A stretch of DNA of 64,000 nucleotides from an uncultured Gemmatimonadales bacterium (GTDB taxonomy: Bacteria > Gemmatimonadota > Gemmatimonadetes > Gemmatimonadales > GWC2-71-9): positions 26,938-90,937 of the forward strand of contig CBFGTB010000001.1 in assembly GCA_965651715.1 (NCBI GenBank), given 5' to 3'. Positions 49,309 through 56,109 of this stretch are shown here, in pieces (the stretch's first letter is position 1; every line of letters starts with the position of its first letter). The position numbers and the translations under genes were made by a program. Below the pieces are notes generated by a model. The model saw only the letters and a list, made by a program, of their open reading frames with translations, was not told the origin of the DNA and ran no database searches.

Positions 49309-50499
49309 TCAGTACGCGGCGATCCCGGTGATCTCCTGCCCCAGGATCAGCGAGTGCATGTCGTGAGTCCCCTCATAGGTATAGACGCTCTCAAGGTTGG
49401 CCAGATGGCGCATCGAGTGATACTCGATCAGAATGCCGTTGGCCCCCAGCAACCGGCGCGCCTCGCGGGCCACCTCGCAGGCCATGTCGACATTGTTGCG
49501 CTTGGCGAGCGACACCTGCTGCGGAGTCATGGTGCCACGGTCCTTGAGCCGCCCGAGCTGCAACACCAGGAACTGGGCCTTGGTGATCTCGGTGAGCATG
49601 GTCGCCAGACGGGTCTGCTGCAACTGGGTGGCGGCGATGGGGCGATCGAACATCACCCGGTTGGCCGCGTAGCGACGCGCCTCGTCGTAGCACGCCATCG
49701 CCGCGCCGACGCCGCCCCAGGCGATGCCGTAGCGCGCCTGGGTGAGGCACATCAGCGGCGACTTCATCCCGCCGGAGTGGGGCAGCAGGGCGTCCTTGGG
49801 AACATGCACGTCCTGCAGGTGCAGCTCGCTGGTGTCGCTGGCCCGAAGCGACAGCTTGCCCTTCTGGTCCTTGGCGGTGAACCCGGGAGTGTCGGTGGGC
49901 ACAATGAAGCCGCGCACACTCTTGGGGTCGGCGATGTCACCGGTCTTGGCCCAGACGATCGCCACGGTGGCCTGCGACCCGTTGGTGATCCACATCTTGG
50001 TGCCGTTGAGCACCCAGCCGTCGGCGGTCTCCCGCGCGGTGGTGATCATCCCGCCGGGGTTGGAGCCGAAATCGGGTTCGGTCAGTCCGAAGCAGCCGAT
50101 CTCCTCGCCGCTCGCCAACCGCGGCAACCAGTGCGCCTTCTGGGCTTCACTGCCGAAGGCGAAGATGGGATACATCACCAGGGCGCCCTGCACCGAGGCG
50201 AAGGAGCGAATGCCGCTGTCGCCCCGCTCCAGTTCCTGCATGATCAGGCCGTAGGCCACGTTGTTGAGCCCGGCACAGCCGTACTCTTCGGGCAGATTGG
50301 CGCCGAACAGCCCCAGCTCGGCCATGCCCGGAATCAGTTCCTTGGGAAAGCGCCCCTCGATGTAGGCCGGCCCGATGGCGGGCACCAGCGCGTCGCTGAC
50401 CCACTGACGCACCGTGTCGCGCACCGCGCGCTCTTCCTCCGACAACAACGAGTCGATGTCATAGAAATCGACGCCGGTGTATTCCGACGAACCCGCCAT
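49309..50499 (-). CDS. gcdH: Glutaryl-CoA dehydrogenase-type acyl-CoA dehydrogenase (copy 1)
   Basis: 396 aa with 'GCFGLTEPDFGSNP' and 'YTYEGTHDMHSLILGQEITGIAAY' at the C-terminus. Adjacent to etfBA. Confidence 0.85.
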   Translation of the reverse strand: MAGSSEYTGVDFYDIDSLLSEEERAVRDTVRQWVSDALVPAIGPAYIEGRFPKELIPGMAELGLFGANLPEEYGCAGLNNVAYGLIMQELERGDSGIRSFASVQGALVMYPIFAFGSEAQKAHWLPRLASGEEIGCFGLTEPDFGSNPGGMITTARETADGWVLNGTKMWITNGSQATVAIVWAKTGDIADPKSVRGFIVPTDTPGFTAKDQKGKLSLRASDTSELHLQDVHVPKDALLPHSGGMKSPLMCLTQARYGIAWGGVGAAMACYDEARRYAANRVMFDRPIAATQLQQTRLATMLTEITKAQFLVLQLGRLKDRGTMTPQQVSLAKRNNVDMACEVAREARRLLGANGILIEYHSMRHLANLESVYTYEGTHDMHSLILGQEITGIAAY

Positions 50500-50546
50500 G
50501 CGTACCCATCCCCGGTAAAAGTCCGCCGGGAAGATAACAACGGGGT

Positions 50547-50569
50547 CGGGGCGGCCCCGCGACGCCCCG
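50547..50569 (-). terminator. Possible terminator hairpin after propeller gene P1
   Basis: 7-bp stem CGGGGCG / CGCCCCG with a 9-nt loop, 15 nt past the stop. Followed in gene sense by ACCCCGUUGUUAUCUU. Confidence 0.3.
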
Positions 50570-50583
50570 CGCCGGGCCGATGA

Positions 50584-51630
50584 TCAGCGCCCCGGGGCCG
50601 CCGCCCACCAGCGCAAGCCAGTCACCGTGGGCACCGGGTCATGACTCTCAAGGATGAACCGTTCACCATCGTAGGCCATCGCTGCAAAACGGCCCGGCAG
50701 TGCCATGCTGCCGCGGTAGTCACAGTCGGACAGGGCGTAACGGTCGAGGTGACGGCCCCGGTCCTCACCACCGCCGTTGGCCAGCACGATCACTGTGGAG
50801 TCGACAAGTGCGATGGCGCTGACCGAAAATGTCGGTTGGCTGACCGGTTGGGTGGGATAGGGTTGCCCGCTGACCAGTTTGCCGATGCAGCGATGGTCGA
50901 GTCCCTGGTACACCACCAGCAGATTGCCATAGGGATAGGCCATCGCCCATACCGCGCCACCATTCGAGGCCACCACGACACTGCGGGCAAAGTCGGGCAG
51001 CGCGCCCAAAGCGGCGAGTGGTGGCGGCCGGGATTCGACCACCGCACCAGTGGTACTCAGCCGGAGCAGCGTGGTCGTGGCGCCACTCGACACCACCACC
51101 GGTTCATTGTTGACTAATGCGAGGCCGGCGAGGCGCTCGGCGGCGAGCGGAATCAATGTCGCAGTACCGCCGGTGTCGTCGAGGGCGGTGAGCCGGACTA
51201 CATCGGGGTCGGCCGCCCAGGTCATCCCTCGCTGATCGAATTGGAGTCCGAAGTTGCCGCGGAACTCGCCCGGCCCCTCACCGGTCCCGCCCGACGTCCA
51301 GCGTAACTGCCCGGTGCTGTCGAACTGCTTGACCCGATCGTCGCCGTAGTCGTAGGTCGCGAACCGACCGCCGCCCCCCACCAGCGTCCGCGGCATCAAA
51401 AGCAGCGTGTCATCGGCGGAGCCGCCGATCACAAACGCCGTGTCCCACGTCCCCGCCAACAGGTGCCGTGTCGGCGTTGCCAGCTCGGGCAACGGGTCCC
51501 AGGTGGCGGCGCCATCAGCGGGCCCGCCGGACCGGCTACAGGCAAGAAGCCCGAATGCCAGCGCCGCGAACCGCAGAGGGGAGATACATGTGCGTGGCCG
51601 CCATCCCCCCTCGGGTTCATTGGCGCTCAT
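50584..51630 (-). CDS. Beta-propeller (NHL / 6-bladed-like) lipoprotein, paralog P1
   Basis: Track ORF 50584..51825, trimmed to ATG 51630, which lies 12 nt after GGGAGAGG. Lipobox 'FGLLAC' and blade motif 'GGTGEGPGEFRGNFGL'. The upstream 65 codons are translated repeat DNA. Confidence 0.65.
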   Translation of the reverse strand: MSANEPEGGWRPRTCISPLRFAALAFGLLACSRSGGPADGAATWDPLPELATPTRHLLAGTWDTAFVIGGSADDTLLLMPRTLVGGGGRFATYDYGDDRVKQFDSTGQLRWTSGGTGEGPGEFRGNFGLQFDQRGMTWAADPDVVRLTALDDTGGTATLIPLAAERLAGLALVNNEPVVVSSGATTTLLRLSTTGAVVESRPPPLAALGALPDFARSVVVASNGGAVWAMAYPYGNLLVVYQGLDHRCIGKLVSGQPYPTQPVSQPTFSVSAIALVDSTVIVLANGGGEDRGRHLDRYALSDCDYRGSMALPGRFAAMAYDGERFILESHDPVPTVTGLRWWAAAPGR

Positions 51631-51841
51631 TCGTGGTGTGCGCCTCTCCCACAGTGTGACCATCCGCGAATGGACGCGAATACACGCGAATACTGCCCCA
51701 GCTCCCCTTCGCACTCTTTCGCGTTCATTCGTGTTCATTCGCGGTTTGCGCCTCTCCCACAGTGTGACCATCCGCGAATGGACGCGAATGCACGCGAATA
51801 CTGCCCCAACCCCCCTGGCACTCATTCGCGTTCATTCACGG
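51626..51841. repeat. Two tandem 108-bp modules, each an imperfect ~27-bp inverted repeat (hairpin) + CACAGTGTG palindrome + GGGAGAGG
   Basis: 51641 and 51749 carry the same cgcctctcccacagtgtgaccatccgcgaatggacgcgaat[a/g]cacgcgaatactgcccca. Arms are 51664-51692 vs 51718-51744, and 51772-51800 vs 51821-51841. Confidence 0.9.
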
Positions 51842-51907
51842 ACCTCATTCGCGTCCATTCGCGTCCATTCGTGGACCTCATTCGCGTCCATTCGCGTTCA
51901 TTCGTGG
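51842..51907. repeat. Two in-phase 33-bp tandem units (acctcattcgcgtccattcgcg[t/t]ccattcgtgg), each three ~10-11-bp CATTCG[CT]G subrepeats
   Basis: Units 51842-51874 and 51875-51907 differ at one position. Confidence 0.9.
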
Positions 51908-51968
51908 ACCCGCATTCTCCAAGCGAGGGGATCATCCACCAATCCAGCCGGGGCAACTCCATCGTCGA

Positions 51969-53084
51969 TCATCGTTTCCCCACAATCTCATACAGCACGA
52001 CATCCTGGAGGCCGTCCGCATCTTCGTCCGTCAGGAGGAGATGATTGCCGCCAAACCAGCGCAGCGACTGAGTGGTCTTCATGGGCAGCATGGACACAGT
52101 AGGGCTACCGCTCCGGAGCACGGCAAGGCGTCGTTCGGCCGCCGGACCAGTCACGACATCAACGACAACATCCCCCGCATCCGACACACGCAGATCCACG
52201 ACCGGGGAATAGACCCGAGGGACCAGGTCCCGACGATCCATCGCCTGATACAGTTCGTGCAGCACACGCCCTGCACGCCCAAGTCGGAAATTGATCGCAC
52301 TGTCACGAACCGATCCGGGAATTGGACTGGGCGTCAGCGCGAGCCGCCGGTTGAACACCGTATCACCGTTCACTGACACCACAACGACCCGGATCTCACT
52401 GTTCCCATCAACAGGCATCATGGGGACTGCCTCCGCGCCGAATTTCCCATTGGCTGAAAACGCGATCCGCGGCGTGTGACAGTACGGCACAAAGATCGAG
52501 ACACTTCCCTTCTCGGTTGGCCGCCGCAGCGAGCATGAGGCCTTGGGCCACAGTAGAACAGTCGTCGGTGGTTCGCCCTCCTCGCGACGTATGGAGTAGA
52601 TCGTCGACCCGCTGTCGCCGCGTGACTGCCACCAGCTCGCCCCTCCTGCTGGTGCGGCAGCCCGGAGACGAGGTGACGCGAGACCCGCCGGCGCCCGAAT
52701 CGTCGCAGTGGAATCCACTCGGCCGGACGCATCGAAAGACGTGCTCCGCTGCAGGGTCCAGTCGACAACCCACAGGCCGTTCGGGCGAACGAACAACTGC
52801 GCCACATTGCGAATATCGCCCGGCCCGGCCCCCGAAGCCCCAACGGTCCGCGCCTTGGTCGCCCCCGGAACAAAGCCGACAATGACACCATCCTCCGGCT
52901 GCCAGATCCAGATGGCGCCATCGGCGCCAACACCCGCTTCGGCCACACGGCTCAGATCGTTGGCGGTGGCCGAGATGCGGCGCAATTCCCTGAGAGTGCC
53001 CTCTTGGGCCGACATATGTGGTGGGACCGTCACACATAACAGTGCGGCGCCAACCATCACGCGGACAATCAGCGCGAGCCCCAT
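51969..53084 (-). CDS. Beta-propeller family secreted protein, paralog P2
   Basis: Track ORF 51969..53204, trimmed to ATG 53084 (MGLALIVRVMVGAALLCVTV...). A later ATG is also possible. Motif 'GASGAGPGDIRNV'. AT-richer than its neighbours. Confidence 0.6.
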   Translation of the reverse strand: MGLALIVRVMVGAALLCVTVPPHMSAQEGTLRELRRISATANDLSRVAEAGVGADGAIWIWQPEDGVIVGFVPGATKARTVGASGAGPGDIRNVAQLFVRPNGLWVVDWTLQRSTSFDASGRVDSTATIRAPAGLASPRLRAAAPAGGASWWQSRGDSGSTIYSIRREEGEPPTTVLLWPKASCSLRRPTEKGSVSIFVPYCHTPRIAFSANGKFGAEAVPMMPVDGNSEIRVVVVSVNGDTVFNRRLALTPSPIPGSVRDSAINFRLGRAGRVLHELYQAMDRRDLVPRVYSPVVDLRVSDAGDVVVDVVTGPAAERRLAVLRSGSPTVSMLPMKTTQSLRWFGGNHLLLTDEDADGLQDVVLYEIVGKR

Positions 53085-53154
53085 CCGCGAATGGACGCGA
53101 ATACACGCGAATACTGCCCCAACTCCCTTGACACTCATTCGCGCAGATTCGCGG
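53085..53154. repeat. Third copy of the hairpin module, abutting the P2 start codon
   Basis: 53085-53113 ccgcgaatggacgcgaatacacgcgaata is identical to 51664-51692. The partner arm is 53132-53154. The CACAGTGTG/GGGAGAGG tail is replaced by P2 coding sequence. Confidence 0.9.
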
Positions 53155-53319
53155 ACCTCATTCGCGTCCATTCGCGTCCATTCGTGGATCCCCTTCGCAC
53201 TCATTCGCGTTCATTCGCGGACCTCATTCGCGTCCATTCGCGTTCATTCGTGGATCTCATTCGCGTCCATTCGCGTCCATTCGTGGATCTCGTTCGCGTC
53301 CCTTCGCTGACCCGTTCGG
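53155..53319. repeat. Five in-phase 33-bp tandem units of the CATTCGCG repeat (last unit degenerate)
   Basis: Units are 53155-53187, 53188-53220, 53221-53253, 53254-53286 and 53287-53319. The last two overlap the 3' end of the acyl-CoA dehydrogenase ORF. Confidence 0.9.
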
Positions 53320-54543
53320 ACCGGCCGGCGTGAACGCCGCCGTCCCGGTCACCGCCTGGCCCACGATCAGCGTGTGCATGTCGTGGGTACCTTCGTAGGT
53401 ATAGACACTTTCGAGGTTCGCCATGTGGCGCATGCTGTGCCATCCCCCCAGGATGCCGTTGGCACCCAGCAGACGCCGCGCTTCGCGGGCGACGTCGCAG
53501 GCCATGTCGACGTTGTGACGTTTGGCCAGCGACACCTGGGCCGGCGTCGCCTGGCCCGCGTCCATCAGCCGTCCCAGCCGCATCGCCAGCAACTGCCCGT
53601 TGGTCACCCGGGTGATCATCTCGGCCAGGCGTTCCTGCTGGAGCTGGGTCGCCGCCAGCGGGGCGCCGAACATCACCCGGGACCTGGCGTACTGAAGTGC
53701 CTCATCGTAGCACGCCATCGCCGCGCCGAGACTGCCCCAGACGATCCCGTAGCGGGCCTGGGTCAGACATTGCAGCGGTGACTTGACGCCGGCCGAGAGC
53801 GGCAGGATCGCATCGCGCCCCAGTCGCACCTGGTCGAAGGTCATCGCGCTCGACTCCGACACCCGGAGTGAGTGCTTGTCGTCGATCCGGTGCACCGTCA
53901 CACCCGGGGCGTCGGTCGGCACCAGAAAGCCGCGGATACTCCGTGCCTCGTCGCTGCCGTTGGTCTTGGCCCAGACCACCGCGACATCGGCCGATGGGCC
54001 GTTGGAGAGCCACTTCTTGGTGCCGTGCAGCCGCCAGCCGTCGGCGGTTTCGGTGGCATCGGTGATCATCCCCGCCGGGTTGCTGCCGAAGTCCGGCTCG
54101 GTGAGTCCGAAACACCCCACCACCTCGCCGCGCGCCATCGCCGGCAGCCAGCGGGTCTTCTGCTCCTCGCTGCCGAAGGCCCGGATCGGATACATCACCA
54201 GCGAACTCTGCACCGACGCAAACGACCGAATGCCGCTGTCACAGCGCTCGAGTTCCTGCATGATCAGCCCGTACATGGTCGCGCTGTGCTCGGGCCCGCC
54301 GTAGCGCGCCGGGGTGGTCGGCCCGAGGCAGCCGAGGGCGCCCAGTTCGGTGGCCAGTCCCTCGGGGAATACGCCGGCGAAGTACCACTCGCTGATCCGA
54401 GGCATCAGCCGCGCCTCGACCCAGCTCCGGACCCGATCGCGCAGCGCCCGTTCCTCATCGCTCAGCAAATCATCGAGCGCCAGAAAATCGGGGGCCGTGA
54501 AGGGCGGCAGCGGCGGCGGATACAACGCGGCAAGCGGCTTCAT
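53257..54543 (-). CDS. Glutaryl-CoA dehydrogenase-type acyl-CoA dehydrogenase (copy 2) with a repeat-encoded C-terminal tail
   Basis: Start MKPLAALYPPP at ATG 54543 (ATGA overlap with the SprT stop). Colinear with copy 1 through '...YTYEGTHDMHTLIVGQAVTGTAAF', then 24 extra residues. Confidence 0.85.
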   Translation of the reverse strand: MKPLAALYPPPLPPFTAPDFLALDDLLSDEERALRDRVRSWVEARLMPRISEWYFAGVFPEGLATELGALGCLGPTTPARYGGPEHSATMYGLIMQELERCDSGIRSFASVQSSLVMYPIRAFGSEEQKTRWLPAMARGEVVGCFGLTEPDFGSNPAGMITDATETADGWRLHGTKKWLSNGPSADVAVVWAKTNGSDEARSIRGFLVPTDAPGVTVHRIDDKHSLRVSESSAMTFDQVRLGRDAILPLSAGVKSPLQCLTQARYGIVWGSLGAAMACYDEALQYARSRVMFGAPLAATQLQQERLAEMITRVTNGQLLAMRLGRLMDAGQATPAQVSLAKRHNVDMACDVAREARRLLGANGILGGWHSMRHMANLESVYTYEGTHDMHTLIVGQAVTGTAAFTPAGPNGSAKGRERDPRMDANGRE

Positions 54544-55253
54544 GCGATCAATCCGGGACGAAGGGTGGTCGGAATCTCTGCCAGCGGAACCGTCGCCGCC
54601 GGGCGAATGCCGACCGCCCGCGCCTTGCGCCGGAAGGCGGCACCATGATCCAGCGGCAGCCCGGTCTCCGCCTGCCACTGGTGCACCATTTCGTGCAGCA
54701 GTGTGTCGGTCACCCCGGCCCAGCCATCGCGTCGGAGGTGGCGTTCAGAAATTGTAATCGCCACCGAGCGACCGTCGACTGCCGCTTCGAACTCACCCAG
54801 GCGCCGCTCCATCCGCCGGGACAGGCGGACCGGCACCGTGCTGAGTGCTCCATCAAAGTACCGCTCGTTGAGGATGGCGTGGAGCCGTTCCAGTCGGGCA
54901 ATCACGGCGAGCTGTTCCGGCGGTATCCGGGGCGGCCCGCGCCGCGGTCGCGCCGGCGCGTGCCGCTCGACCGGAAACGCGAGGAAGATCCGTCGCGCCC
55001 GCAGCCGCTCGGCCCGGCTGGTTCGTGGCGCCACGAAGCGCAGAATCGCCTGCAACACCGCATCAGGCGCCCAGGCGTAGCCGGCGTGCAGCCGCAGCGT
55101 CTGGCGAGGATCCCATGAGACCAGCACGGTTCGGTTGCGGGTCAGGGACACCCGCACCTCCGGCGCCAGACCGAGTCGGTGGAGCCGACGCGGCAGCTCG
55201 GCTTCGGGGCGGGCATCGAGCGACAGTTCAAGTTGTTGTGCTGCGGCGGTCAT
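54540..55253 (-). CDS. SprT-like zinc metalloprotease domain protein
   Basis: 'LLHEMVHQW' HExxH in a SprT-like context. The start is either ATG 55253 or TTG 55268. Confidence 0.7.
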   Translation of the reverse strand: MTAAAQQLELSLDARPEAELPRRLHRLGLAPEVRVSLTRNRTVLVSWDPRQTLRLHAGYAWAPDAVLQAILRFVAPRTSRAERLRARRIFLAFPVERHAPARPRRGPPRIPPEQLAVIARLERLHAILNERYFDGALSTVPVRLSRRMERRLGEFEAAVDGRSVAITISERHLRRDGWAGVTDTLLHEMVHQWQAETGLPLDHGAAFRRKARAVGIRPAATVPLAEIPTTLRPGLIA

Positions 55254-55257
55254 GATC

Positions 55258-56109
55258 TCAGGCGTCAACCGGCAGAGCCGTGCTCCGTGGCCGGGGAAAC
55301 GACACCGCCGGCGCGGCGGCGAAATGGCCTGCCGCTCGATCCCAGACGCGGTGGTGCACCCTGATGGTGCTGCTGTCGACCTCGATCACATTGCACGCCG
55401 AAGGCCGCTGCCCCCGGGTGCGCGAGGTATGCGTCCCACTGGTGGCTACCACGGTTCCGTTGGGGAGGGTGCCCACCGCCTCCTGATGGTCATGGCCGCA
55501 GAGCACCAGATCGACACCGGTCGCGATGACCTGCCGCCATGAGCGACGCCAGTGCGCCAACCCCATCCGCTCCGAAATGGCCCCCCGCATCAGGTTCTGA
55601 TGCATCACCATCACCCGGAGCAGCTCGACCGGTTCGGCCTGGAACCGGGCGGCGATCCGCTCGGTCTCGCTGGCCGGCAGATGACCCTTCACCGCCATGT
55701 CATTGAGATTGTAGGTCATCGAACCGGTCGCGACGCCGTAGCTGGTGAGCGCGCCGCAGAACACTGCGCCGTCGACCACCAGCTTGGGCGTCAGGTCGTC
55801 GCCGAAGTAGCGACGGTACTTCTCATACTTGGGGCCCGCGCCCACCAGATCAAACGGTGTCGCCCACCACTGCACATCGTGGTTCCCCGGCACCACGATG
55901 GTCGGCGCCACCGTCCGCATCTGCTGGACAAACACCAGCGCCCGCTGGAACTCCCCGTGACGGGCCCGCTGGGTCAGGTCGCCCGCGATCGCCACGGCAT
56001 CGGGCCGCAACTCGGCTGCCAGCGCCTCAAGCGCTGCGATCTGCTGCAAATCCGCGTCGCGACCGAAGTGCAGGTCGCTCATCTGCAAAATGGTGAGGCG
56101 TCGGTTCAC
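55258..56109 (-). CDS. Calcineurin-like metallophosphoesterase
   Basis: 'MSDLHFG', 'AGDLTQ', 'PGNHD' and 'CGHDH' motifs. The GTG at 56109 forms GTGA with the upstream stop. Confidence 0.8.
   Translation of the reverse strand: MNRRLTILQMSDLHFGRDADLQQIAALEALAAELRPDAVAIAGDLTQRARHGEFQRALVFVQQMRTVAPTIVVPGNHDVQWWATPFDLVGAGPKYEKYRRYFGDDLTPKLVVDGAVFCGALTSYGVATGSMTYNLNDMAVKGHLPASETERIAARFQAEPVELLRVMVMHQNLMRGAISERMGLAHWRRSWRQVIATGVDLVLCGHDHQEAVGTLPNGTVVATSGTHTSRTRGQRPSACNVIEVDSSTIRVHHRVWDRAAGHFAAAPAVSFPRPRSTALPVDA

Follow-up and report, generated by a model that had tools for sequence, protein, structure and literature searches.

Two clusters of a palindromic repeat, here called locus 1 and locus 2, lie in a 64-kb stretch of DNA from an uncultured Gemmatimonadales bacterium (contig CBFGTB010000001.1; the whole stretch is referred to below as the window). 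We consider it likely, with a probability of roughly 78%, that locus 2 (positions 53085-53307) is a gene-less derivative of a palindromic cassette that elsewhere brackets genes of the GxxExxY family, and that this derivative sits at the very stop codon of the glutaryl-CoA dehydrogenase paralogue ACAD2. We therefore read the hairpin and the adjoining array of repeats as a lineage-specific relic of a mobile or recombinogenic cassette, and not as a conserved regulator of P2, the secreted-protein gene that follows. The palindrome consists of two inverted arms, and the arms reach into the neighbouring genes: ACAD2 ends on the TGA of an arm, P2 starts at the edge of an arm, and P1, the next gene downstream, starts in an arm-derived stretch.

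The hairpin and the 33-nt array of locus 2

Locus 2 is made of one hairpin and about 4.6 further copies of one of its arms, the copies being arranged as 33-nt units. All features described here are on the minus strand, and gene sense refers to that strand. The hairpin comprises a three-decamer arm (53085-53113; the 3' arm in gene sense, GUAUUCGCGUGUAUUCGCGUCCAUUCGCGG), a loop of 21 nt (53114-53134) and a two-decamer arm (53135-53154; the 5' arm in gene sense, CCGCGAAUCUGCGCGAAUGA). A preliminary description of this DNA had noted that the three-decamer arm recurs at 51664-51692. The match is exact; the identity extends 4 nt to the left and, to the right, over 37 nt in all, and a third copy of the arm begins at 51772. 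The same description placed the hairpin directly against the start codon of P2 and saw no Shine-Dalgarno sequence, and both observations were confirmed: in gene sense ...GTCCATTCGCGG is followed immediately by ATG 53084, and an AGGAGG-like sequence was not found upstream, in contrast to the GGAAGGAGAA that precedes the starts of P2 homologues.

The array had been described as five consensus units of exactly 33 bp. A period-33 array is indeed present (Tandem Repeats Finder: 5.2 copies, 83% matches, score 232 at 53136-53307), but only three of the units, at 53155-53187, 53221-53253 and 53254-53286, fit the consensus given. These type A units are extra copies of the 5' arm (CCACGAATGGACGCGAATGGACGCGAATGAGGT); the first contains ATG 53171-53169, in frame with P2, and the third contains TGA 53259-53257, the stop codon of ACAD2. 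The unit at 53188-53220 is instead of type B, like the sequences at 53122 and 51809, and consists of a two-decamer 5' arm and loop-like sequence without a partner arm; it is 97% identical to 51703-51731. The supposed fifth unit, at 53287, is partial: only 53287-53307 belong to the repeat, as a degenerate unit at the outer edge of the insertion, while the first ~12 nt counted to it are the last ACAD2 codons (53308-53319), which places the end of the array near 53307 and not at 53319. The underlying period is 10 nt, a 33-nt unit being 10+10+13. There are 29 copies of the heptamer ATTCGCG in the window, compared with 17.3 +/- 3.7 in shuffled sequence, and the two loci account for 25 of them.

It had also been proposed that, 33 being a multiple of 3, every frame through the array stays open and that the resulting repeat-peptide ORFs are spurious. 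This does not hold for every frame: each type A unit has one TGA in gene sense, one of these being the ACAD2 stop at 53257-53259, and the type B unit closes two frames. Nor are all of the repeat ORFs spurious. In gene sense an A unit reads PRMDANGRE* (ATG GAC GCG AAT GGA CGC GAA TGA, that is MDANGRE*), and the MDANGRE frame is the conserved N-terminal coding frame of GxxExxY genes. Furthermore, the true end of ACAD2 falls within the array, and the start given to P2 in the public annotation is an arm ATG.

In the local minimum-free-energy fold (-37.2 kcal/mol, z -1.8), the three-decamer arm engages the proximal two-decamer arm through its inner two decamers; its remaining decamer, beside the AUG, becomes paired only if its partner is an upstream A unit. 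The P2 leader as a whole folds at -119.6 kcal/mol over 276 nt (z -3.5).

A tri-decamer palindrome family tied to GxxExxY genes

We scanned one genome per species (596 Gb) for the 18-mer ATTCGCGTYCATTCGYGG, a pattern that biases the sample toward one heptamer type and for which ~69 matches are expected by chance; ORF calls in the foreign loci were crude. The scan gave at least 120 loci in at least 12 phyla. Among the matches listed, 62 unique sites carry a complementary arm within 500 nt, which shows that the matches are not random. The consensus palindrome is nnAACCGCGAATGnACGCGAATGAACGCGAAT, then a loop of 1-460 nt, then ATTCGCGTnnATTCGCGTCCATTCGCGGTTnn. Each arm consists of three phased decamers with the skeleton A-C-n-C-n-n-A-T-n-n, and the element can be written as (AA)CC-[CRCNRAT-NNA]x3 followed, after the loop, by an inverted copy ending in GG(TT). 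Record titles name Verrucomicrobiota, Planctomycetota, Acidobacteriota, Nitrospirota, Chloroflexota and several classes of Pseudomonadota, as well as Spirochaetia, Hydrogenedentota, Sumerlaeota, Marinimicrobia, Kiritimatiellae and Saccharimonadales.

A covariance model was built from 59 hairpins, all of them from other phyla. In the 64-kb window it recognised only three hairpins (50.2, 45.1 and 35.8 bits; E 1e-12 to 3e-8), with the next best hit at 12 bits; the locus-2 hairpin was matched at 53081-53158 (35.8 bits, E 3e-8). The window hairpins belong to this family, which is defined here as the tri-decamer palindrome family. The earlier claim that the two loci are the same element was likewise upheld, both by a 143-nt stretch that is 90% identical and by the 36-50 bits that all three hairpins score against a model from other phyla. 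The two base pairs outside the CC...GG ends covary (AU 47, GC 4-6, UA 1-6, with 0-2 of 59 unpaired). A search of Rfam 15 returned nothing at E<=1 on 50000-55000 and nothing at the gathering score on the whole window, and the hairpins of eight canonical cassettes obtained only sub-threshold matches to eukaryotic miRNA-precursor models.

Some of the palindromes enclose a gene. Loops of 365-462 nt hold an ORF of ~125 aa, for which TIGR04256 ('GxxExxY protein') gives E 1e-34 to 1e-38; the gene-enclosing loci are L012, L038, L061, L085, L101 and L091, and L099 has a frameshifted copy. The 5' arm is the start of the gene with its first ~7 codons (ATG-AAC-GCG-AAT-GAA-CGC-GAA for MNANERE, or ATG-GAC-GCG-AAT-GGA-CGC-GAA for MDANGRE), and the 3' arm comes after the stop codon of the GxxExxY gene or overlaps it. 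In 15 cassettes the GxxExxY gene starts with the ATG of decamer 1, in 13 with that of decamer 2. All 120 of the 120 closest homologues begin with M[DN]ANGREL or MNANEREL. The family is large (9,113 representatives of 50%-identity clusters at E<0.001), and about one third of the best 150 of these, judged by eye, begin with M[ND][AT][NDK]. The starts MNTNxHE and MDTDGHG correspond to the same arm with the heptamer CACGAAT or CACGGAT, and the A unit of the window fits the frame of the family N-terminus, M-[DN]-[AT]-[ND]-x-[RH]-x. The predicted GxxExxY fold is PD-(D/E)XK (AlphaFold2 pLDDT 92), with Cas4 SSO0001 and a restriction-endonuclease-like protein as the nearest structures (TM < 0.55); the PDB holds no relative found by sequence and, by fold, only generic PD-(D/E)XK neighbours. 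The corresponding Pfam family, PF13366, has been described as of unknown function and subject to 'multiple transfers' between divisions (PMC3424549, a review).

For a sample that does not depend on the arms, we collected metagenome GxxExxY loci by two internal peptide motifs, which gave 66 loci with enough flanking sequence. The broad GxxExxY alignment (A3) was too divergent for the locus search, and the narrower A4 was used. A 5' arm was present in 46 of the 66 loci (70%), a 3' arm in 46 and both in 37 (56%), and flank-to-flank complementarity reached at least 17/20 in 49. The arms are tied to GxxExxY genes. Gene-less copies are the majority, with 49 simple '><' arm pairs vs ~8 gene-enclosing loops. 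Duplicated arms occur elsewhere as '>><' (four times), '<<' (six) and '>>' (five), the '><<<<<' of the window array being the longest same-orientation run among the loci compared; the junction between two A units is specific to the window, with 0 matches in the metagenome scan.

The heptamer differs between cassettes and matches between both arms of one cassette (CGCGAAT, CACGAAT, CACGGAT, CACAGAT, CGCAGAT and CGCTAAT were seen). Across 35 cassettes, 86.4% of cells are paired, a percentage inflated by the way in which left arms were chosen (see below), and compensatory changes occur in 20 of 34 pairs; 0 of 500 shuffles reach these values. Pair 10/63 is AU in 19 cases, GC in 16 and unpaired in none. 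On the sense strand, G.U (36) equals A.C (37). Unlike what is expected of a selected RNA helix, this equality indicates a strand-symmetric constraint at the level of DNA, and it weakens a reading of the element as an RNA hairpin. A further idea, that three decamers supply stops and starts in all three frames, was also weakened, since many decamers read ATGGAC (no stop) and one copy, from Gemmatirosa, has a period of 9 nt.

The element is placed at gene ends in other genomes as well. A long upstream ORF (at least 60 codons) stops inside the 5' arm in 19 of 43 cassettes vs 23 of 172 control windows (p = 2e-5), and the ACAD2 stop codon is the same position as such elements occupy elsewhere. In one Verrucomicrobial lineage the gene lies between carA and purA; the stop codon of carA (TGA) and the start codon of GxxExxY (ATG) share the sequence ATGA in the first decamer, and the GxxExxY TAG falls in the 3' arm. 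By the crude ORF calls, most hairpins lie between genes, frequently no more than ~20 nt from a stop codon; 27 are flanked by convergent and 13 by divergent genes. In a single Verrucomicrobial genome bin, at least five gene-less hairpin copies (94-120 bp, 91-97% identity) have unrelated flanks on four contigs (L050, L053, L063 and L076). Longer stretches, of up to 232 bp, are common to some of the copies in this bin, a hint of a larger composite repeat.

Arms and GxxExxY genes were also seen in other arrangements and replicons. On plasmid 1 of Gemmatirosa kalamazoonensis, a cultured member of the Gemmatimonadota, a GxxExxY gene is followed by the tri-repeat hairpin with the 9-nt period mentioned above (GCGGATNNN; L256, 1900-1985). 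Only 5 plasmid records held a GxxExxY gene. Viral contigs gave 29 arm matches, 5 with both arms, with no GxxExxY gene and no clear phage vector. The representative protein P0215 (50%-identity cluster), from another organism, has the N-terminus MDTNWEHEWTRMDTNELARMDTNMNADGK..., that is, tandem 5' arms read through before the GxxExxY gene; therefore, arm arrays occur beside intact GxxExxY genes too. In a Nitrosomonas genome bin (L009, 10-720), four to five hairpins stand head to tail with a period of ~174 bp, 2 kb from a GxxExxY gene; their left arms have CGCTAAT and their right arms ATTCGCG, which gives an identical T.C mismatch in every copy. In an uncultured bacterium, a contig of 467x coverage has six solo arms, all on one strand, to either side of three large genes in a cassette-like layout (L026, 738-7608). 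A Blastocatellia genome bin has, 4 kb from a hairpin, three matches in tandem to YrlA (Y RNA-like), all below threshold (52, 37 and 31 bits, gathering score 69; L004, 1498-2317).

Variable gene content and the origin of gene ends

In gene sense, the order of genes around the repeats is SprT-like, ACAD2, locus 2, P2, locus 1, P1, ACAD1, electron transfer flavoprotein (ETF) beta and ETF alpha, all on the minus strand. The interval between SprT and ACAD1 differs among close Gemmatimonadales relatives and is a hot spot of variable gene content. Two relatives (L254 and L255) have SprT and ACAD1 only. In L249, whose ACAD1 is 99% identical to that of the window, SprT is followed by an ACAD2 of 411 aa, 129 bp and ACAD1, without arms, P1 or P2. 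One further contig has a gene of 285 aa between the two ACADs, four (L250-L253) have a reversed OmpW gene there, and the window and its near-identical twin L121 have arms, P2, arms and P1. Based on the comparison with L249, a block of about 50590-53307 is lineage-specific, with the ACAD2 stop codon as its upstream edge; homology to L249 resumes near 50590, just past the P1 stop.

This comparison also reveals how ACAD2 acquired its present end. The L249 protein ends ...FAPATPRG-TGA. The window has TCA at that point, and its reading frame continues across the partial arm until the first full A unit supplies a TGA, by which ACAD2 gains 17 residues (...PRMDANGRE*) and reaches 428 aa (53257-54543).

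The case of P2 is similar at the other end of the gene. P2 (51969-53084) encodes a secreted, NHL-type six-bladed beta-propeller with a signal peptide (AlphaFold2 pLDDT 87; Foldseek E 1e-8 to Pizza6 and the Brat NHL domain), and it had no match in Pfam. Its 13 homologues (40-66% identity) lie in unrelated neighbourhoods without arms, and have their own Shine-Dalgarno sequence and ~15 extra N-terminal residues. By this comparison P2 has lost its native Shine-Dalgarno sequence and first ~15 codons, in whose place the element now stands. In the window, ATG 53084 at the arm's outer edge opens the P2 ORF, 87 nt downstream of the in-frame arm ATG at 53171; the latter is the start chosen by the public annotation (P0121, MDANEVRES..., 400 aa). 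With no arms at the 13 homologues, and neither arms, P1 nor P2 in the relative with the 99% identical ACAD1, the element is not P2's own leader, as the preliminary description had taken it to be. For P1 (50584-51630), a lipoprotein-like cargo gene, the only usable start (MSANE..., 51630) lies inside an arm-derived half element. The similarity between P1 and P2 is marginal (E 0.001).

Locus 1 contains, from its upstream end in gene sense, two type A units (51842-51907), a complete hairpin (51768-51845; 45 bits, RNA fold -40.2 kcal/mol, z -3.8), a second complete hairpin (51662-51746; 50 bits, -42.4 kcal/mol) and the half element of 5' arm and loop-like sequence that holds the P1 start codon (51605-51636). 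Between 51611 and 51837, a 108-bp unit composed of a hairpin and a 27-nt spacer (ATGGTCACACTGTGGGAGAGGCGCAnACC in gene sense) is present 2.1 times in tandem at 90% identity. This duplication is a second mode of amplification, distinct from the 33-nt arm units. We rejected the possibility that this spacer is native ACAD2-ACAD1 intergenic DNA, as it aligns no better than shuffled sequence.

The number of arm units is unequal between the two loci, as stated before, and from this it had been proposed that the array expands and contracts. Expansion and contraction by slippage is plausible, but the comparison at hand gave no variation: an independent assembly (ERZ23366319, NODE_592) differs from the window by 11 substitutions and no indel in 13.2 kb and has identical arrays. 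Of the 11 substitutions, 4 fall in a stretch of 5 nt inside the metallophosphoesterase gene (window 55628-55632, L121 868-872), which looks like a multi-nucleotide change and not like independent SNPs. The neighbouring genes scanned were the ACADs, the SprT-like gene, the metallophosphoesterase and ETF; ACAD1 (49309-50499) is, like ACAD2, a glutaryl-CoA dehydrogenase paralogue, and the two are 63% identical. Nearly all ACAD1 matches with a named source come from Gemmatimonadota, in keeping with a Gemmatimonadales genome bin.

Proposed origin, rival explanations and known systems

We propose, with moderate confidence, that the arms function as DNA, serving as recombination or mobilisation sites. 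Exchange between dispersed copies would have fused a 5'-truncated P2 and P1 into the spot between ACAD2 and ACAD1. Unequal exchange among arms would have multiplied one arm as 33-nt units in locus 2, and in locus 1 it would have multiplied a hairpin and its 27-nt spacer as the 108-bp unit. By-products would be a transcript with stem-loops of -37 to -42 kcal/mol between cistrons, and translation of P2 that begins without a Shine-Dalgarno sequence at an element-derived position; the downstream genes would rely on start codons donated by the element. The GxxExxY protein, by analogy with RAYT and REPINs, is the obvious candidate for moving or maintaining the arms.

Several points weigh against an origin from a mobile GxxExxY cassette. 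The window itself has no GxxExxY gene (tblastn with two GxxExxY proteins gave nothing better than E 0.4), and descent of its copies from a full cassette is therefore drawn from family resemblance and not from a local parent copy. The 66-locus sample represents one GxxExxY subfamily, and the left arms in alignments A1 and A5 were picked by best complementarity, which inflates the percentage paired. Mobility is deduced solely from the number of copies and from which relatives do or do not carry the element, no transposase being known. No target-site duplication was seen, direct repeats outside the palindrome being at chance in 62 copies (none in 34, 1 nt in 21). GxxExxY can also be a stable resident, the carA-purA copy being at the same place in 9 of 9 contigs with DNA. 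The hairpins may also have a role in P2 expression.

The most serious rival, which we judge possible but not probable, is a selected function in RNA: an intercistronic stem-loop that serves termination, protection from 3' exonucleases or cutting by RNase III, in the manner of repetitive extragenic palindromes (REP) or of rRNA intervening sequences. The mostly intergenic position of the hairpins near stop codons (27 convergent, 13 divergent), their strong stems with compensatory pair changes, and the certain transcription of arms that carry a GxxExxY start codon all fit such a role. The wobble bias expected of an RNA helix is missing, however, with G.U equal to A.C; there is no U-tract terminator signature and no Rfam match, and a mere stem would not need an invariant skeleton across phyla. 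In a promoter and terminator scan, 51400-53500 had 0 intrinsic-terminator-like sites and no sigma-70 promoters. The preliminary description favoured dedicated translational control of P2, in which the start is masked and the number of units is tuned or phase-varied by slippage. The start codon abutting the arm without a Shine-Dalgarno sequence, the stable leader fold and the unequal unit numbers speak for it; we consider it unlikely all the same, because the element is missing at all sampled P2 homologue loci and in a very close relative, the same arms stand behind or between unrelated genes in at least 12 phyla, and two near-identical assemblies show no length difference. Equally unlikely, in our estimate, are phased heptamers acting as double-stranded sites for an oligomeric host protein, in the style of iterons or operators, with the array as a regulatory or architectural loading region. 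A 10-bp period would present the sites on one helix face, and both the invariant A-C-n-C-n-n-A-T skeleton and the strand-symmetric constraint agree with protein binding to DNA. Against a host protein, the heptamers vary by cassette within environments and covary between arms, which no single conserved protein would fit; the Gemmatirosa copy has its 9-nt period, and no candidate regulator is nearby. Binding by the GxxExxY protein of the element itself would agree with this idea.

The remaining alternatives are far less probable. Integrons are carried by phyla in which the palindrome family occurs, and imperfect palindromes beside promoterless genes of the same orientation, at a spot with variable gene content, recall an attC cluster with P2 and P1 as its gene cassettes, the more so as most family members begin ..AAC and end GTT... 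We regard this as very improbable: the window hairpins begin GGTCC and end GG|ATGG without GTTRRRY or RYYYAAC cores, three phased decamers are unlike the R and L box layout, long-loop copies, unlike attC sites, have a gene inside, and most copies are solitary behind housekeeping genes. The scan for integrases covered the neighbouring genes only and revealed none. Short-read metagenome assemblies can collapse or expand tandem repeats, but an assembly artefact is scarcely credible here, given that the independent assembly, from another sample, is identical over the 13.2 kb save for the 11 substitutions, none of them in the arrays, and that a third record has the same 400-aa P2 call. A ToxI-like RNA of a type III toxin-antitoxin system would likewise show tandem direct repeats of ~33 nt with a hairpin and a same-strand gene after them. 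P2 is a signal-peptide beta-propeller, not a ToxN/AbiQ-type RNase, and the repeats are arms of a widespread palindrome that usually occurs as a single hairpin; this last idea is refuted for practical purposes.

A broader and more tentative proposal is that GxxExxY genes and tri-decamer arms together form a new class of autonomous selfish cassette, which we rate as possible but well short of even odds. A small PD-(D/E)XK nuclease would recognise and mobilise its own arms, as an analogue of RAYT and REPIN with a different fold, and its substrate could be double-stranded, cruciform or single-stranded DNA. Insertion would take place at the 3' ends of host genes, with expression by translational coupling through the stop and start codons of the decamers. 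Gene-less hairpins and arm arrays would remain, rewire neighbouring genes and seed rearrangements in more than ten bacterial phyla, and the window would illustrate how such relics capture genes and donate start codons.

Our search of open-access papers and bioRxiv found no description of the palindrome or of its link to GxxExxY, and the element is apparently both very widespread and undescribed. One skeleton (A-C-n-C-n-n-A-T, phased three times and inverted) recurs from Gemmatimonadota to Saccharimonadales and brackets a gene family of unknown function in 56-74% of the sampled subfamily. If true, this would explain junk ORFs of the 'MDANGRE / IRVHSW' type and mis-called gene starts in metagenome annotations, and it would give GxxExxY proteins a testable substrate, their own arms. 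The window shows that elements of this kind can donate stop and start codons to adjacent genes and so reshape them, here through a stop codon for ACAD2 (+17 aa) and a replaced translation start in two secreted proteins. The array at locus 2 should accordingly not be read as a P2-specific regulator.

Among known systems, the element works most like REPIN/RAYT or a modular miniature inverted-repeat transposable element (MITE) such as BOX, yet it lacks the features that define either. The more distant likenesses are soon exhausted. As with integron attC sites, imperfect palindromes separate promoterless same-strand genes of variable content and the ends of the family are usually AAC...GTT; the window hairpins, by contrast, are bounded by GGTCC... 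and ...CGCGGATGG without RYYYAAC or GTTRRRY cores, the wider family shares only AAC/GTT, the sequence after GTT is not RRRY as a rule, and a three-decamer palindrome can enclose its own gene. ToxI arrays share the tandem repeats of ~33-36 nt, the hairpin and the gene that follows, but here no ToxN-like RNase follows, and each unit is half of a palindrome. The 23S rRNA intervening sequences of Leptospira and Coxiella carry a small ORF. These elements resemble ours in having a long inverted-repeat stem around an ORF of ~120 aa, of unknown function and with many paralogues; they differ in that their protein is a four-helix bundle (PF05635), and in that they lie in rRNA, are removed by RNase III and have no phased decamers.

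MITEs such as the pneumococcal BOX (boxA-(boxB)n-boxC) and the Neisseria Correia element have terminal inverted repeats round a variable core and varying numbers of internal or terminal modules, and they insert beside genes and affect their ends and transcripts. In contrast to these, our element has no target-site duplication and no known DDE transposase parent, and the module that is multiplied is the arm itself. It has been previously reported that a REP is an imperfect palindrome of 20-40 nt with a conserved, unpaired GTAG or CGTC tag at one end and an associated HUH/Y1 RAYT gene (PMC3733652), and the REP families of that study do not fit the arms. The resemblance to the REPIN/RAYT elements of Pseudomonas and Enterobacteria lies in intergenic pairs of inverted short repeats that form long hairpins, in many gene-less copies per genome, in a small nuclease gene that is itself flanked by the repeats, in the lack of a target-site duplication and in a position often between convergent or co-directional genes. 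The flanked gene here, however, is TIGR04256/PF13366 with a PD-(D/E)XK fold and not a HUH/Y1 RAYT, and the arms are 30-34 nt of phased decamers without a terminal GTAG or CGTC tag. Furthermore, the arm carries the start codon of the gene, the GxxExxY genes are multi-copy, and, whereas REP are species-specific, one skeleton is found here across at least 12 phyla.

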